64,000 nt of DNA, from the IMG/VR virus record IMGVR_UViG_3300032007_000071, positions 10,074 to 74,073 of that record; one strand, 5' to 3'. The stretch's first letter is position 1. Each line of letters begins with the position of its first letter. The translations under genes and the position numbers were made by a program. This stretch comes from a virus (Duplodnaviria > Caudoviricetes). This document shows positions 584 to 38,885 of this stretch, one piece after another. The notes under the pieces are model-generated. The model ran no database searches, had not been told where the DNA came from, and was given only the letters and a program-made list of their open reading frames with translations.

Positions 584-1104
584 TTTGTTTCGTTTGGATA
601 AAGATCTTTATTCACACAGAGGTTCAGCGGCTCCTCCCGTTGCATCTGGATGAGTACGGCAAACCATCCGTTCTCCAAGGGACCCACCGACTGATACGAC
701 ACCGTGGCGTCGTCGAGGTCGATGCGTGCGAAGTCGCCATCCATCTTCCCGTTGGAGATCTCTTCATCGTGCTTCTTCAGGAGCCAGGCGAGGAAGTCAC
801 GGGCATGAACCAGTGCCTCCTGCTTGGCCACGGCCGCCTCCATGCCGTCCGCCATCTTCTCCGCACGCACGAAGAAGTAGATGGGGTAATTGAAGGTCGG
901 ACGTGCGATCGGTCCGTCACCCTCTACGGCACTCTCCATGACGACACATGGCGACTGTAGGTTGCTGATGCCTTTCGCCATCTCCACCACTCCCCTCCAG
1001 GAGTCGGTGAACATAAACCGGATATTCCCGGTACCGGGGTTGTGGAGCATATACTTATACTGCGCACACCACTGCTCTACAATAGAATAGAATGAGAATG
1101 TCAT
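580..1104 (-). CDS. hypothetical phage protein, possibly tail completion/terminator-like
   Basis: 174 aa ORF with AT-rich start context; size and C-terminus resemble Bacteroidales phage tail-completion proteins as I recall them; function weakly supported. Confidence 0.5.
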   Translation of the reverse strand: MTFSFYSIVEQWCAQYKYMLHNPGTGNIRFMFTDSWRGVVEMAKGISNLQSPCVVMESAVEGDGPIARPTFNYPIYFFVRAEKMADGMEAAVAKQEALVHARDFLAWLLKKHDEEISNGKMDGDFARIDLDDATVSYQSVGPLENGWFAVLIQMQREEPLNLCVNKDLYPNETK

Positions 1105-1132
1105 TGTTGTATTGTGTTTACGTTATTCATTC

Positions 1133-1375
1133 GGTCGCAAGCTCCCTTGTTGTGGGGTCGCAGAGCTCCCTTGTTGTTGGGCGCTTCGCTTGAAATTTTA
1201 TTTAGAATTTATATTTATAATTTAATTTAAAATTTTCCTGCCCACCACTTCCTGCGGATAGGGTAATTCTACGCGAACACGTACCGCGCCAGCCAATTAT
1301 AAATATAATTCTAAATAACAATTATAAATATAATTTCAAGCGAAGCGCCCCCATAATCAGGGAGCGGAGCGACCC
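1133..1375 (-). repeat. GNA-hairpin/AT-arm palindromic element, copy 1 (2 arms)
   Basis: gggcgcttcgcttgaaatt at 1179 and aatttcaagcgaagcgccc ending 1350 are inverted repeats around phased AT units and a GC core; flanking ggtcgcaagctcccttg motifs. Confidence 0.9.
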
Positions 1376-2774: not shown

Positions 2775-3638
2775 ATGGTAAAGAAACAGCGTACTCACGA
2801 GCTGCGTCATATCGTGGCCGTGTCCAACAACAAAGGTGGGGCAGGCAAGACCTCTACCGTGCTCAACCTTGCGTCAGCCATCTCCCGTCGTGTGGAGGGT
2901 TATCGGGTGCTCGTCATCGACTGCGATCCGCAGCACAACCTCTCCCAACTGCTGAAATGGGAGGACAAGATGGAACTCGACGGCAACCCCACCATTTTTA
3001 ATGCACTCTGCAACCAACAGGGGCTCCCCGTTTATAAGGCACAAAACGGACTTTACTTCACCCCGGCCAGTATGAAGCTCAACGGCATCGACGTCTTCCT
3101 CTCGCAGCTGCCCAACCCTAACAAAGCACTCCAGGAACTCTTGGAACGGCCTATCGACGACCGTACCACAACCCTACTCGGTGACACCATCGGGGAAAAG
3201 CAGTCGGTGCTCTCCCCTACCATCGCCGATAGCTTCGACTTCGTGTTCCTCGACACACAGCCTGCCATGAGCCGCATGACCTACAACGCCCTTTATGCGG
3301 CCGACGGGGTTATCATCACGACCGAGCTCGAGGAGACAAGTATCAGTGGTATGGTCAACGTGGCCGTTGCTGCCGGGAAAGTGATTGCCGATACCGGGAA
3401 ACTCAATATACAAGGAATCCTGATCACCAAGTCGGATGCCCGCTTGCGTATTGCCAAACACTACGAACCGCAGATCCGCCAGTCGTTTTGTGAGACGTTC
3501 CGCACCGTCATCCGTCAGAGCAAGGACATATCGGAGAGTCGTGCCCTGCATGAGGACGTGTTTACTTCTTATGCCGGTGGACGTGCCGCCGAGGACTTCA
3601 TCGCCCTGGCCAACGAGTATCTGGAGAAGTTTGCTTAA
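2775..3638 (+). CDS. parA: ParA family partition ATPase
   Basis: deviant Walker A NNKGGAGKT, VIDCDPQHN, FVFLDTQP; start moved to the ATG at 2775 after an AT-rich leader. Confidence 0.92.
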   Translation: MVKKQRTHELRHIVAVSNNKGGAGKTSTVLNLASAISRRVEGYRVLVIDCDPQHNLSQLLKWEDKMELDGNPTIFNALCNQQGLPVYKAQNGLYFTPASMKLNGIDVFLSQLPNPNKALQELLERPIDDRTTTLLGDTIGEKQSVLSPTIADSFDFVFLDTQPAMSRMTYNALYAADGVIITTELEETSISGMVNVAVAAGKVIADTGKLNIQGILITKSDARLRIAKHYEPQIRQSFCETFRTVIRQSKDISESRALHEDVFTSYAGGRAAEDFIALANEYLEKFA

Positions 3639-3672
3639 CCACTTGGTTACTGCATTACTTGTTTAAGCATAC

Positions 3673-5579: not shown

Positions 5580-6089
5580 GGTCGCTCCGCTTGAAATTAT
5601 ACTTAAAATTTGGCCTTAAAATTTTACTTAAAATTTGGCTGGCGCGACGAGGGTCGGTCGCAAGCTCCCTTGGTGGGGCGCTCCGCTTGAAATTCTATTT
5701 ATAATTTATATTTAAAATTCTATTTATAATGGCTGGCGCGATGATTGTTGGTCGCAAGCTCCCTTGTTGATGGGCGCTCCGCTTGAAATTTGCTTTATAA
5801 TTTATATTTATAATTTTATTTAGAATTGGCTGGCGCGATGATTGATCGCCTACGGATCCGGGGTTGCCTTCATCGTAGCACCTGTACAAGACGCATGAAA
5901 GGGTGGGCAGGAAAATTTTAAATCAAATTCTAAATAAAAATTATAAATACAATTTCAAGCGAAGCGCCCCGAAGCAGCGCGAAGCGCAAAACAATCGGTG
6001 GCTGGAAAATTTTAAGTCAAATTTTAAGTAAGAATTTTAAGTAAAATTTCAAGCACGAAGTGCGCCCCTAACAAGGGAGCTTGCGACCC
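5580..6089 (+). repeat. GNA-hairpin/AT-arm palindromic element, copy 2 (3 direct + 2 inverted arms)
   Basis: three gc(t/c)ccgcttgaaatt...ggctggcgcg arms, core ending cgcatgaaagggtgggcagg, two inverted arms ending ttcaagcgaagc and ttcaagcacgaagtgc. Confidence 0.92.
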
Positions 6090-7785: not shown

Positions 7786-8678
7786 AAAAGCAAACCCCCA
7801 ATTACCCCCAGCTCTGGCAGCAGTGCCTGGCAACCATCAGAAGCCAATACCCCAAGGGGGAGAAATACGACCACTGGTTCAGTGTGTGGTTCGGTGACGT
7901 GGCACTCGATGCCTACGATCCCGACAAACGGCAGCTGCGGTTACGGGTGCCGTCACGCTACGTCTATGAGTTCCTTGAAAGCTATATGCTCAAACCGCTC
8001 AGAGCGGCCCTACAAGCCACGTTCGGGGAGCAGGTGGCACTGACGTACCGCATCATGCCGCAAGCCCCGTCATTTGCGGATATGGCCGCTTATCTGCAAC
8101 ATCAGTCGGGTGGGGGAGCACGACGCGACAACCGCATCCATCTCGACAATGCTAAGGAACGGCTCGAGGACGGTCTGCGCTATTTCCTGAAAGATAAGCC
8201 GATGGAGTGGGTGAGCGGCTACGAGGACGTGGTGAAGTTCCTCACCGACAACGACCGCCGGGGACTGCTCATCGTGGGGACACCGGGACTTGGCAAGTCG
8301 CTCATCGCCTGTCGCATCCTCCCCGTACTACTCGCCAACGGCGTGAAGACGCCGCCCGTGGTGAGGGCCACCGACCTGCGGAAGCGGTTAGAGGAACTCA
8401 AACGCGAGCGGGTGGTCATCATCGACGACCTCGGCAAGGAGCCCCGCAAACACTATGGCGACACCGATCAGTCTTTCTTCGAGCTCTGCGACAATGCCGA
8501 GCGCACGGGGGCGATCCTGATCATCACCACGAATCTCGCTACCACGCCCACCGACGACCCCCGCTACTCCGATGACATCGAGACACGCTACGGAGAAGCC
8601 GTGCTCAGTCGGCTGAAGGCCATCACGCACGTCGCTGTCTTTGAGGGCAACGGACTGAGGGAGGAGGAGAAGAAGTAG
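7779..8678 (+). CDS. DnaA N-terminal domain fused to a DnaC/IstB-like AAA+ ATPase (putative helicase loader)
   Basis: N-terminal LWQQCLATIRSQ...WF...LRVPSRYVYEFLE resembles DnaA domain I; Walker A GTPGLGKS, Walker B IIDDLGKE. Confidence 0.75.
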   Translation: MVKKQTPNYPQLWQQCLATIRSQYPKGEKYDHWFSVWFGDVALDAYDPDKRQLRLRVPSRYVYEFLESYMLKPLRAALQATFGEQVALTYRIMPQAPSFADMAAYLQHQSGGGARRDNRIHLDNAKERLEDGLRYFLKDKPMEWVSGYEDVVKFLTDNDRRGLLIVGTPGLGKSLIACRILPVLLANGVKTPPVVRATDLRKRLEELKRERVVIIDDLGKEPRKHYGDTDQSFFELCDNAERTGAILIITTNLATTPTDDPRYSDDIETRYGEAVLSRLKAITHVAVFEGNGLREEEKK

Positions 8679-8683
8679 AAGAC

Positions 8684-9274
8684 CTATTCGCTTCGTTCCC
8701 GGCAACGTTTCTGACGACGCTGCCATTCCCGCCGCATCGCTTCTACATACACGTCGTCGGTGCGGTATTCTTTGCAGAACGCCTCGATCATCTCCACCTG
8801 GGCATAACGCTCCCCCTTGTGCGCTTGCTGGTACTCCTTGCTGAAGACCCCTACGGCCTGCCAGAACGCCTCCCGGATGAGCCGTAGGAGCGATGCTGCC
8901 TGCTGCTGGCCAAAGCTCGTGTCACTGTCCCACGGATGTACCGTGCCGTCCTCGTACATGGCATACGGGGGACAGGCCACGGGGAGGTACTGGACAAACA
9001 GCTCCCGCGTGACGCCGAATACCTTCTCCACGCTCTGCGCGTCCATCTCCAGCCCTACCTCCAGGGCAGCGTGCCAGGTATCGCAGATCACGTTACCGGG
9101 CACGACATCAGGGTGGAGCTCATCGTCGGCAGGCATCTCCATCACCGCTTGAACTCCATCTATATTCTGCACTTCTATCACCGGGTTATCTTTCACCCGT
9201 TTCGGCCCGCCCAGTGTCCTGCGTGCCCATCCTCGCATATAATCTGTTATTTTAAGCCAGCAAATCGGTTCCAT
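8684..9274 (-). CDS. hypothetical phage protein
   Basis: 196 aa, convergent with the ATPase gene, own TACCTTTG promoter at 9338-9345. Confidence 0.75.
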   Translation of the reverse strand: MEPICWLKITDYMRGWARRTLGGPKRVKDNPVIEVQNIDGVQAVMEMPADDELHPDVVPGNVICDTWHAALEVGLEMDAQSVEKVFGVTRELFVQYLPVACPPYAMYEDGTVHPWDSDTSFGQQQAASLLRLIREAFWQAVGVFSKEYQQAHKGERYAQVEMIEAFCKEYRTDDVYVEAMRREWQRRQKRCRERSE

Positions 9275-10717: not shown

Positions 10718-11151
10718 GGTCGCAGTGCTCCCTTATTTGGGGGCGCACTTCGTGCTTGAAATTTTACTTAAAATTTGGCCTTAAAATTTTACTTAAAATT
10801 TGGCTGGCGCGATGATGGGCGGTCGCAGAGCTCCCTTATTTGGGGGCGCTCCGCTTGAAATTATATTTAAAATTTATATTTAAAATTTTATTTAGAATTG
10901 GCTGGCGCGGTGCTTGTTTCCGCATGGACCCTATCCGCATGAAAGGGTGGCAGGAAAATTTTAAATTCAATTCTAAATAATAATTCTAAATATAATTTCA
11001 AGCGAAGCGACCAGAAGCAGCGCGAAGCGCTCCAAGCAATCGGTGGGCAGGAAAATTTTAAGTCAAATTTTAAGTAAGAATTTTAAGTAAAATTTTAAGC
11101 GGAGCGACCCCATAAAAAGCGAAGCGCCCATCAGCAAGGGAGCTTGCGACC
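10718..11151 (+). repeat. GNA-hairpin/AT-arm palindromic element, copy 3 (2 + 2 arms)
   Basis: arms at about 10743 and 10845, core with ccctatccgcatgaaagggtggcagg, inverted arms ending about 11010 and 11110. Confidence 0.92.
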
Positions 11152-11186
11152 GACAAAACGAATACGAAAACAAAATATAGACAACT

Positions 11187-12192: not shown

Positions 12193-12218
12193 CTCGGGGC
12201 CCCTTTCGGGGGTTGGGT

Positions 12219-12640
12219 GGGGCGCACTTCGTGCTTGAAATTTTACTTAAAATTTGGACTTAAAATTTTACTTAAAATTTTACTGCCACCGATTGCTCTG
12301 GGCGCTTCGCGCTGCTTCCCTGGGTTCGGGGCGCTTCGCTTGAAATTGGATTTATAATTTTTATTTAGAATTTGATTTAAAATTTTCCTGCCCACCCTTT
12401 CCTACGGATAGGCGGATAGCCGAACTGGATGATCCTATGGGAACGCGTACCGCGCCATCCAAATTTTAAGTAAAATTTTAAGTAAGAATTTTAAGTAAAA
12501 TTTTGAGCGGAGCGACCATACAGCAAGGGAGCTTGCGACCGACAATCATCGCTCCAGCCAATTCTAAATAAAATTATAAATAGAAATTCTAAATAAAATT
12601 TCAAGCGGAGCGCCCAAAAAAAAGAGGAAGCGGAGCGACC
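12219..12640 (-). repeat. GNA-hairpin/AT-arm palindromic element, copy 4 (2 + 2 arms, inverted relative to copies 2 and 3)
   Basis: same arms and core as copies 2 and 3 in reverse-complement order. Confidence 0.92.
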
Positions 12641-12695
12641 GGAATATAGAAAACACTTTTTGTACCACATAATTAACAATTAAACACAAAAGACT

Positions 12696-19336: not shown

Positions 19337-19540
19337 GGTCGCGAAGCTCCCTATCTATTGGTCGCTTCGCTTGAAATTGGATTTAGAATTATTATTTAAA
19401 ATTTTATTTAGAATTGGCTGCGCGGTGATGGTTGGTCGCCGTGCTCTCATACCGCCCTATTCGCATGAAAGGGTATGCAGGAAAATTTTAAACCCAATTC
19501 TAAATATAAATTCTAAATAAAATTTCAAGCGGAGCGACCC
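19337..19540 (+). repeat. GNA-hairpin/AT-arm palindromic element, copy 5 (2 arms)
   Basis: ggtcgcttcgcttgaaatt ... aatttcaagcggagcgacc with core cgcatgaaagggtatgcagg. Confidence 0.9.
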
Positions 19541-23419: not shown

Positions 23420-23617
23420 GGGGCGCTTCGCTTGAAATTGTATTTATAATTTTTATTTAGAATTTTATTTATAATTGGCTGGCGCGGTACGTGTACCGCA
23501 GGTTTATCCTATCCGCATGAAAGGGTGTGCAGGATAATTTTAAATCCAATTATAAATATAAATTCTAAATAAAATTTCAAGCGAAGCGACCAACAAAAAA
23601 AGGAGCGGAGCGACCCC
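23420..23617 (+). repeat. GNA-hairpin/AT-arm palindromic element, copy 6 (2 arms)
   Basis: gggcgcttcgcttgaaatt ... aatttcaagcgaagcgacc with core cctatccgcatgaaagggtgtgcagg. Confidence 0.9.
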
Positions 23618-37159: not shown

Positions 37160-38059
37160 ATGAGAAATCTGTTTTCTTTCGCAGCCGTGGCACTCGTCTG
37201 TGCCGCTTGTACCAATCAGACCGAACTGGCAGAGACCAGTGAAGCATCAGTAGAGAAGCAGCGGGTGACGCTCTCTTTCTCGCCCTTCACGATGACCCCC
37301 ATGGGAGCCAAGGCAAGAGTGACAACCCGTGCTACGGTGCCGGTCAGTGACGTGGTGAACCGCCTCGACGTGTGGCTGATGGAGGGAGACTCCACCACGG
37401 CCCTCACGAAACGTGAGGTGGTAGCGGAAAGTCACCAGACCGCCACAGACGATGGCTTCGGCTCGTTGTCGCTCACACTCGACAAGAGCAAGACCTACAC
37501 CCTCTATGCCATCGGCCACAAGGAGAGTGCGCCCACGACACTCTCCACGGGGGTGGTATCGTTCCCGGACACGAAGAAGTCGCAGACGCTCTATTATTCT
37601 ACTACCTTCACGCCCGCCACAACAACGACCCTTGAATGTAAGATGCTTCGGGCGGTGGGTATGTTCCGGGTCGTCATCGAAGACGAGATACCCTCTGAGG
37701 TGAAGAAGATTTCTATCACCGCGGACGGAACGCCGACACAGTGGAGCTTCCCACAACATGCGGGCATCACGCCGACGGACACCTACTCCATATCGTGGAC
37801 GAGTTTCAAGCACGAGGCGGACGGCACCATGTCGTTTAGTATCTATATCTTAAGCAGTGACACGGAGAAACGCTATTCCATCACGGTCTCTGCCTATGGC
37901 GCCGACGGAGCCGTGTTGAAGACCCGCACATTCACGGACGTGCCTATCCGCAACAACTACCGCACGATCTACACCGGCCGCTTCTTTAAGGACACGCCCT
38001 TTTCCTCTAAGTTTCGGGTGGAGGAAGACTGGCTGGAATATGACGCAGTAGCGTATTAA
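37160..38059 (+). CDS. FimB/Mfa2-family (type V pilus anchor-like) lipoprotein
   Basis: lipobox VCAAC, TTRA processing-like site, GTYTLYAIGH-like strand, C-terminal FRVEEDW motif. Confidence 0.7.
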   Translation: MRNLFSFAAVALVCAACTNQTELAETSEASVEKQRVTLSFSPFTMTPMGAKARVTTRATVPVSDVVNRLDVWLMEGDSTTALTKREVVAESHQTATDDGFGSLSLTLDKSKTYTLYAIGHKESAPTTLSTGVVSFPDTKKSQTLYYSTTFTPATTTTLECKMLRAVGMFRVVIEDEIPSEVKKISITADGTPTQWSFPQHAGITPTDTYSISWTSFKHEADGTMSFSIYILSSDTEKRYSITVSAYGADGAVLKTRTFTDVPIRNNYRTIYTGRFFKDTPFSSKFRVEEDWLEYDAVAY

Positions 38060-38066
38060 TCTCATC

Positions 38067-38804
38067 GGTCGCTTCGCCCCCTTCCTTTTGGGCGCTACGC
38101 TTGAAATTTTACTTAAAATTTCTACTTAAAATTTTACTTAAAATTTGGCTGACGCGACGATTGTTGGTCGCTTCGCTTGAAATTTTACTTAAAATTCTTA
38201 CTTAAAATTTTACTTAAAATTCCATGCGGAACCGGATGCAGTAGGGAGCGGAGCGACTGCTTATCGTTTTCTTAAATTTAATTCGCCATGAATGTAATAG
38301 AAGAACATAACGCTCCGTTGGAACCGATGCGGGTCATCACGGGCGTTGCAATGAAAGTACATGCAAAATTCCGTTCCGGTCTGTTGGAATCCGCTTATGA
38401 GGCAGCAATGGAATACTTGCTGAAGAAAGGCGGCCATGTAGTAGAGCGGCAGAAAGAGCTGCCCATATTTTGGGACGATGTTCGCTTGAATCAAACTTAC
38501 CGTATGGACTTGGTGATTGACGGAGTGATTGTAGAGCTCAAATCCGTCAGCCATACGACCGATGCACACCTTCGCCAACTGTGGAACTACATGCGTCTTA
38601 CTCATACGGAGTATGGTATGCTTATCAATTTTGGTGCTGAGCATCTGTTCTCTGTGTGGTTTCGTCGTGATCCGATTACTAACCGCATCGAGCGGGTAAA
38701 GCTCCTTTAGCGGTTTGCGCCAGCCAAATTTTAAGTAAAATTTTAAGTAAGAATTTTAAGTAAAATTTCAAGCGAAGCGCCCCGTAACAAGGGAGCTTGC
38801 GACC
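38067..38804 (+). mobile_element. GNA-hairpin/AT-arm element, copy 7, enclosing a GxxExxY nuclease gene (candidate autonomous copy)
   Basis: left arms at about 38092 and 38170, right inverted arm 38718-38782 is a near-perfect reverse complement of the left arms; mobility is inferred. Confidence 0.55.
38288..38710 (+). CDS. GxxExxY protein (PD-(D/E)XK nuclease-like)
   Basis: SGLLESAY signature, YRMDLVIDGVIVELKSV, QLWNYM...GMLINFG. Confidence 0.9.
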   Translation: MNVIEEHNAPLEPMRVITGVAMKVHAKFRSGLLESAYEAAMEYLLKKGGHVVERQKELPIFWDDVRLNQTYRMDLVIDGVIVELKSVSHTTDAHLRQLWNYMRLTHTEYGMLINFGAEHLFSVWFRRDPITNRIERVKLL

Positions 38805-38838: not shown

Positions 38839-38885
38839 AAAGGGAGCTATCGGCCCAAGCACCGATGGCTCCCTTTTCTTTTCCT
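38839..38885. terminator. hairpin between convergent operons (probably bidirectional terminator)
   Basis: aagggagctatcgg/ccgatggctcccttt with A-rich and T-rich flanks. Confidence 0.65.

Follow-up and report, generated by a model that had tools for sequence, protein, structure and literature searches.

The region considered here belongs to a 64,000-nt stretch of phage DNA, hereafter referred to as the window, whose source is a linear 74-kb IMG/VR virus record with a completeness estimated at about 66%. At positions 38067–38804, it harbors a cassette in which a gene of the GxxExxY (PDDEXK_3) family is enclosed by inverted repeat arms, two of them in tandem on the left and one on the right (Table 1). 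The upstream neighbor of the cassette is an Mfa2-like lipoprotein gene with its stop codon at 38059; since the cassette is placed between this stop codon and the terminator of the same gene, it is probably co-transcribed with its neighbor. In this phage group, the cassette is found between tandem Mfa2-like (fimbrillin-fold) lipoprotein genes (37160–38059 in the window; loci L020–L024). A sigma-70 promoter scan, whose model does not cover Bacteroidota promoters, found no promoter; the Rfam search did not match any family, and neither the blastn search of the locus against public phage records nor the neighbor-protein scan of IMG/VR retrieved any match.

Table 1. Features of the cassette and of the arm clusters, in window coordinates (G001 and L180 are related phage sequences described in the text).
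Feature	Position	Strand	Basis or remark
Gene-less copy 1, single B-type hairpin	1134..1375	.	orthologous G001 site empty
Gene-less copy 2 (A+ B+ B+ core B- A-)	5581..6089	.	arm search, comparison with relatives
Empty site	8708..8743	.	36 nt duplicated either side of the 446-bp cluster of L180
Gene-less copy 3 (A+ B+ core B- A-, nested)	10719..11162	.	arm search
Gene-less copy 4, arms interleaved A B A B, not nested	12218..12649	.	G001 site empty
Gene-less copy 5	19360..19540	.	long ssDNA hairpin (z -7.0); G001 ortholog with diverged arm type
Gene-less copy 6, single B-type hairpin	23421..23596	.	arm search
Outer left arm	38067..38155	+	GC module GGTCGC..GGGCGC, clamp GCTACGC, four units, inner motif GGCTGACGCG
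Inner left arm, second tandem copy	38166..38221	+	alignment to right arm
Leader, arm to start codon	38222..38287	+	GGGAGYGAGSCGACTG-like stretch kept in relative G001
GxxExxY / PDDEXK_3 gene, 140 aa	38288..38710	+	profile matches, motif, catalytic residues
Right arm	38717..38804	-	inner GCGCCAGCC, inverted AT-rich units, clamp GCGAAGC, outer module AAGGGAGCTTGCGACC
Bidirectional terminator hairpin, just beyond cassette	38839..38876	.	terminator of upstream lipoprotein gene

The clamp of the outer left arm corresponds to a GTA mini-hairpin on the bottom strand, and the four phased AT-rich units of 12–13 nt that follow it are CTTGAAATT and three TTACTTAAAATT-like units; the 12-mer TTACTTAAAATT occurs 25 times in the window, with 0.29 occurrences expected. 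The outer arm pair (38076–38155 and 38717–38796) extends over 80 nt with 88% complementarity and the inner pair (38166–38221 and 38727–38782) over 56 nt with 98%; in the alignment of the inner left arm to the right arm, 54 out of 58 positions agree, from the GC clamp through all the units. The profile matches (PF13366 and TIGR04256) and the arm alignment thus bear out the original prediction, made from the nucleotide sequence, of a GxxExxY gene within inverted arms. The same prediction had the right arm starting 8 nt after the stop codon, as a near-perfect reverse complement of the left arms: the arm does abut the gene, but its conserved inner motif is found at 6 nt and its AT-rich units at 15 nt; the left arms are two in tandem.

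The gene product matched PF13366 (E 1.3e-30, 106.5 bits, cut-off 22) and TIGR04256 (E 2e-32, 111.9 bits, cut-off 35), and its gene is the only GxxExxY gene of the whole 74-kb record. The protein harbors the motif G31-x-x-E34-x-x-Y37 and the catalytic residues D74, E83, and K85; all of these residues are invariant in 15 close homologs and either invariant or conserved at 90% or more in 69 diverse ones. The AlphaFold model (pLDDT 96.2) has a restriction-endonuclease-like fold, the best PDB neighbors of which are Cas4 SSO0001, lambda exonuclease, and the archaeal Hjc, with TM scores of only 0.4–0.5; the PD-(D/E)XK nuclease-like fold that the original note gave for GxxExxY proteins is upheld by these motif residues and by the model. 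A sequence search for a solved structure of a GxxExxY relative found none, the PHROGs search gave no match, and PADLOC returned only a marginal match to Cas4. No known transposase family was found for the protein in Pfam, PHROGs, and PADLOC, PDDEXK_3 being the sole match. The comparison with the syntenic gene of the related phage G001 yielded a dN/dS of about 0.05, with dS saturated; values for gene pairs with indels were discarded as misaligned. Judging from these substitution rates, the GxxExxY protein is under strong purifying selection.

The PF13366/TIGR04256 family is very common: out of 81 Bacteroidota genomes sampled, 48 contain it (up to 13 copies per genome), and it counts 6,736 cluster representatives at E ≤ 0.001. 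A superfamily survey of 2012 enters its role as "Unknown", and in the literature searched no link between the GxxExxY/PF13366 family and repeats was found, the mentions being either of an unknown function or in passing. In three Bacteroidota genomes, the PDDEXK_3 match falls inside an open frame of 883 aa (G032:C1:1297249, G036:C9:91047, and G048:C22:338274), possibly as a consequence of a fusion or of an in-frame insertion into a larger gene.

Arms and gene-less copies in the window

The search with an nhmmer arm model revealed 22 arms in the record, arranged in seven clusters, only one of which encloses a gene. Since the cores of the other six are of only 60–150 nt, the copy at 38067–38804 is the only one that can be said to enclose a gene, which agrees with the original prediction of one gene-bearing and six gene-less copies. 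From the outside to the inside, an arm consists of a GC module (GGTCGC...GGGCGC), a clamp, four phased units of 12–13 nt, and an inner motif (GGCTGGCGCG or CCTGCCCACC). The clamp, GC-TNC-GC (GC-GNA-GC on the other strand), is present in 22 out of 22 arms; the first unit is CTTGAAATT, and the following three are of either type A (ACTTAAAATT) or type B (ATTTAnAATT). A-type arms enclose the gene, and B-type ones occur in all six gene-less clusters. Arms behave as separable modules, as they occur in tandem (5687 and 5783; 38101 and 38177), solo, nested, or interleaved. All the copies of the window are intergenic, mostly just past terminators, and the terminal inverted repeats are common to the gene-bearing and the gene-less copies. 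The cores of the latter share no homology with the inner flanks of the gene, and they are not deletion derivatives of the gene-bearing copy.

The single-strand folds predicted for arm elements are strong (z of -7.0 and -12.6). The partner arms of the gene-less hairpins are only about 80% alike, and their differences are located in the spacers of 2–3 nt, the unit cores being invariant. As far as arm alignments can tell, such a pattern of invariant cores and variable spacers is more in line with a series of sites bound by protein than with selection acting on base pairing.

The latter point is relevant to the idea that the arms act at the RNA level, either pairing across the transcript or folding locally, as an RNase III-type processing or insulating stem that would allow expression from any host transcript, with the nuclease having an unrelated target, e.g., in defence or repair. 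The probable co-transcription of the cassette, the strength of the predicted folds, and the fact that the arms of a mobile bacterial clade (see below) abut the start and stop codons would all be in keeping with it. However, the spacer mismatches between partner arms are uncompensated, the A B A B order of copy 4 cannot nest, the ends are true inverted repeats, in which the GNA loop changes strand from one end to the other, and the Rfam search was negative; for these reasons, we consider a role of this kind improbable.

The position of the gene, exactly where the other copies have their core, might also recall homing, and some homing endonucleases do have a PD-(D/E)XK fold. According to this scheme, the nuclease would cut the gene-less hairpins and repair would copy the gene into them, so that the gene-bearing copy would spread at the expense of the gene-less ones. 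This appears scarcely credible, since six unconverted gene-less copies stand beside the gene in one genome, their cores lack homology to the inner flanks of the gene, and there is one gene copy per genome for each arm type.

Arms beside GxxExxY genes in other phages and in bacteria

Homologs of the protein (58–76% identity) were retrieved from seven viral contigs, and all seven adjoin arms of the same design, with lineage-specific unit sequences. Scanning IMG/VR with the exact arm-clamp pattern gave eight matches: four are real arms, all abutting a GxxExxY gene, and the other four are chance matches within coding sequences. Moreover, the scan of species-representative genomes disclosed 453 relatives, nearly all from rumen Prevotella and other Bacteroidales.

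The flanks of 90 loci (83 from the genome scan plus seven comprising the viral loci and that of the window) were then compared, 300 nt upstream against 300 nt downstream. Repeats scoring at least 20 were inverted in 45 of the 90 loci and direct in 45 of 90, with either kind present in about 68 (~75%); the maximum score in shuffled flanks was 12. In a broad Bacteroidota sample, 19 out of 34 loci with PF13366 genes had flank repeats. The corresponding figure for control genes, taken from genomes of the same kinds (17 regions of 20 kb chosen at random), was 1 out of 251 (0 out of 80 for isolated control genes). The expectation that close homologs should carry such arms holds at all seven viral loci and at most of the 90, nearly all of them from rumen bacteria. 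The motif GCGNAGC has a density of 3.8 per kb just downstream of the gene and of 2.2 per kb, on the opposite strand, just upstream, with a background of 0.2–0.5 per kb; that is, it is enriched about ten-fold beside the gene, favoring one strand upstream and the other downstream, and it is found on both sides in 34 of 86 loci. The arms of distant family members are built from other units (CACAGAG, TCACAAAG, and ATCCGCG), about three per arm.

One viral contig (L022) harbors two GxxExxY genes (1614–2049 and 3199–3640), each with its own arm type, flanking a lipoprotein gene. Many close homologs (65–99% identical) reside on contigs of only 0.5–2 kb, as would be expected if flanking repeats break assemblies; homologs 94–100% identical exist on contigs of up to 112 kb.

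Ten bacterial copies, whose proteins are 89–96% identical, belong to different species of several families and all have different neighbors. Within this mobile clade, nucleotide similarity is confined to about 530–630 bp, corresponding to the gene with 60–90 nt upstream and 40–115 nt downstream, and the unit can be depicted as [GC hairpin][3 x 11-nt units] - gene - [3 x 11-nt inverted units][GCGAAGC clamp]. The median dS of these copies is 0.86, which implies that they are not recent, and their median dN/dS is 0.045; the upstream arm is still about 80–90% identical at a dS of about 0.9, suggesting that the arms are constrained too. In two of the ten copies (L048 and L075), an in-frame TAA occupies codon 71, which is Tyr71 in the others; this could represent either independent decay or something programmed.

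The more alike the proteins, the more similar the flanks, as measured in 3,610 non-syntenic pairs (Spearman 0.42; 0 out of 300 Mantel permutations), and 82% of the pairs with at least 85% protein identity share arms. The anticipated covariation of arm sequence with protein clade is hence present and, at the level of these pairwise comparisons, it shows that gene and arms travel together, with shared descent contributing.

As for dispersed arms, the bacterial genome G088 contains 27 matches of the mobile-clade arm, spread over at least 13 contigs, with a single cognate gene, and 16 matches of this arm were detected in the genome G087. Out of 101 genomes of the family of G088, four have arms: in two of them the cognate gene is present, adjacent to arms, and the other two lack it and have only distant family members. 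In Prevotella sp. tc2-28 (3.4 Mb), the hairpin occurs only twice, once on each side of the gene, and no dispersed gene-less copies were found; likewise, the gene of a 57.6-kb virus record (G002) has arms, with no dispersed gene-less copies in that record. In a genus-wide DNA search for an empty site of a bacterial cassette, the flanks of that cassette proved to be repeated themselves. It had been argued that genomes rich in arms and devoid of any GxxExxY gene would speak against a partnership between the two; on this point, the data are divided, as the arm pattern in IMG/VR leads to GxxExxY genes only, whereas two of the four arm-bearing genomes have no cognate gene.

These two genomes, the excess of gene-less copies over the gene, and the arm types of G001 (B-like around the gene, a third type in the gene-less sites) might point to a pre-existing family of palindromic repeats, moved by another enzyme, which captured the GxxExxY gene in this phage lineage. 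Such a capture would have to have happened again and again, in many clades whose arm sequences differ, and the arms move wherever the gene moves; we therefore regard the gene as very unlikely to be a passenger of this kind.

Turnover of arms between related phages

G001 is a circular assembly of 101.7 kb, syntenic with the window over nearly all genes. Besides the arms flanking its GxxExxY gene, the nhmmer arm model located arms at four further sites. One of its gene-less sites is orthologous to copy 5 of the window and one lies where the window has none; the sites of copies 1, 2, and 4 are empty in G001. The gene-bearing cassette occupies the same syntenic place in most of the related phages, which implies a long vertical inheritance. 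The "direct terminal repeat" of G001 is a 22-nt overlap inside an arm (ends 1–120 and 101683–101733), indicating that the circular assembly was broken inside a repeat. A breakpoint in gene order (G001 76.7 kb versus window 8675–8687) coincides with a solo arm in G001.

An anchor placed beside gene-less copy 2 retrieved four metagenome contigs; the site is filled in the window and in L180, which is 92–97% identical to the window, and it is empty in G001 and in three G001-like metagenome contigs. Furthermore, L180 harbors an A(B core B)A cluster of 446 bp that is missing from the window, surrounded (L180 3257–3765) by a direct duplication of the 36 nt at window 8708–8743, with one mismatch. This length equals that of three 12-nt arm units, which may be a coincidence. 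The start of the insert (3284–3320, about 35 nt) resembles the leader (window 1104–1135) of the minus-strand gene 580–1104 beside copy 1, and the insert joins segments of unequal divergence (92% versus 97%). Arm clusters seem to move together with neighboring leader sequence, and the presence of non-arm, leader-like sequence together with the unequal divergence makes recombinational shuffling a live alternative; in L180, this composition suggests shuffling rather than a defined transposon.

A second polymorphism concerns a single arm of 98 nt, which is present in G001 and in L181 (97.5% identical) and absent from L178 (95–98% identical). At its borders, the indel has an 8-nt repeat, TGGGCGCC, namely the clamp of the arm itself; hence, it could equally be a slippage deletion. 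The presence or absence in such close relatives implies a rapid gain or loss of arms. The junction repeats at the two polymorphic sites are unlike (36 nt and 8 nt), with no target-site duplication of fixed length, and no significant flanking direct repeats were detected at the seven resident copies. These two polymorphisms are cases of arm gain or loss, in which the nuclease may or may not take part.

In principle, the arms might be recombination or regulatory repeats placed at module boundaries of the phage, similar to PeSL elements, which general recombination shuffles and in which the nuclease gene is merely one of the bracketed ORFs. The composition of the L180 insert, with its unequal divergence and the leader-like piece in common with copy 1, the rearrangement breakpoint of G001 at an arm, the intergenic position of all the copies, mostly just past terminators, and the separability of the arms are what one would expect in that case. 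On the other hand, GxxExxY genes of unrelated bacterial contexts are bracketed by arms that have other sequences and the same design (56–75% of the loci versus 0.4% of the controls), they covary with the protein clade, and in IMG/VR real arms are found only beside a GxxExxY gene; taken together, these data make mere module-boundary repeats an unlikely explanation.

A candidate nuclease with cognate repeats and its comparison with known systems

The explanation that we favor, and to which we would give about an even chance of being right, is that GxxExxY is a nuclease with cognate repeats, like those of the REP/RAYT or Ssn/NTS systems and with another fold, which would bind the phased units and cut near the GC cap. 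It builds on the association of gene and arms and its generality, on their co-travel, on the selection acting on both protein and arms, on the turnover of gene-less copies, and on the intact catalytic residues; that the protein binds and cleaves the arms and acts in trans, and the way in which the copies spread, are inferred. What speaks against it are the arm types, which differ between the gene-bearing and the gene-less copies of the window and of G001, the two arm-bearing genomes devoid of a cognate gene, the lack of dispersed copies in Prevotella sp. tc2-28 and G002, the long vertical inheritance of the gene-bearing cassette, the resident copies devoid of significant flanking repeats, the unlike repeats of the two polymorphic sites, and the composition of the L180 insert. 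In detail, the locus would represent a self-contained cassette, with the 140-aa PD-(D/E)XK nuclease gene between inverted arms, each having four phased AT-rich units of 12–13 nt and a GC clamp able to form a C-GNA-G mini-hairpin. The protein, probably as an oligomer, would bind the phased unit cores and cut at or near the GC-capped arm ends; the 22 phage arms and the similar gene-less arms of bacteria would be its cognate sites. Since strand joining is beyond the reach of a hydrolytic nuclease, new copies would come from the repair or recombination of broken arms, and not from classical transposition.

We see a small chance, well short of even, that the cassettes constitute a class of autonomous selfish elements, in which a minimal nuclease cuts multi-unit arms capped by mini-hairpins and host repair copies both kinds of arms, and that these elements are active in rumen phages, some with 36-nt target duplications.

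If GxxExxY proteins are indeed the partners of the repeats that bracket them, the family would gain a testable function. A class of intergenic repeats of gut and rumen bacteria and of their phages would be explained, and a third nuclease fold, after HUH and GIY-YIG, would be added to the design in which a nuclease is coupled to cognate repeats. The recognition of phased short units, possibly programmable by sequence, might also be of use as a tool. In the literature searched, we did not find a nuclease-plus-repeat partnership described for GxxExxY proteins; the following systems share some of its aspects.

The PeSL (promoter-early stem-loop) cassettes of T4-type phages consist of repeated intergenic stem-loops that bracket small ORFs and mark modular shuffling. 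They differ in carrying a promoter and in having no known dedicated nuclease, whereas the elements described here follow one nuclease family into bacterial chromosomes.

As in the arms, a short site is repeated several times in phase at each end of Mu and Tn7, the orientation being inverted, and in Tn7 a nuclease with the PD-(D/E)XK restriction-enzyme fold, TnsA, acts at the ends. Both elements, however, need a DDE transposase for strand transfer, and the cassette encodes none.

Pairs formed by MITEs and autonomous insertion sequences resemble the present case in their terminal inverted repeats, in the occurrence of one gene-bearing copy and several gene-less ones with the same ends, and in the presence/absence polymorphism between relatives (L180 versus the window; G001 and L181 versus L178). 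Here, in contrast, there is neither a known transposase family nor a consistent target-site duplication, and the gene-less cores do not derive from the gene-bearing copy by deletion.

A closer parallel in layout is offered by the Ssn nucleases and their NTS/SRM hairpins, where the gene of a small nuclease stands between cognate hairpin repeats that are also dispersed: 42% of the Ssn homologs are flanked on both sides, and the dispersed NTS repeats number in the hundreds (Chenal et al. 2025, PMC11893778); the comparable figure here is that of GCGNAGC on both sides of the gene, given above. Ssn proteins have a GIY-YIG fold and a single short hairpin motif, and their cleavage of ssDNA, which modulates transformation, is proven (PMC11893778); the GIY-YIG domain is absent from the GxxExxY protein, which matches PF13366/TIGR04256 instead.

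Finally, the REP/REPIN elements and their RAYT share with the system described here a single-copy nuclease-type gene with its own palindromic repeats on either side, numerous hairpin doublets that have no gene and are dispersed in the intergenic DNA of the same genome, and a gene under purifying selection with repeats that covary with the protein lineage. The two differ in the enzyme, RAYT being an HUH/Y1 (Y1_Tnp) protein that acts on single-stranded hairpins and GxxExxY a 140-aa PD-(D/E)XK hydrolase, and in the repeats, since REP hairpins are 20–40 nt long and each arm is a GC-capped array of four units of 12 nt, set in phase; moreover, the example reported here lies in a phage.
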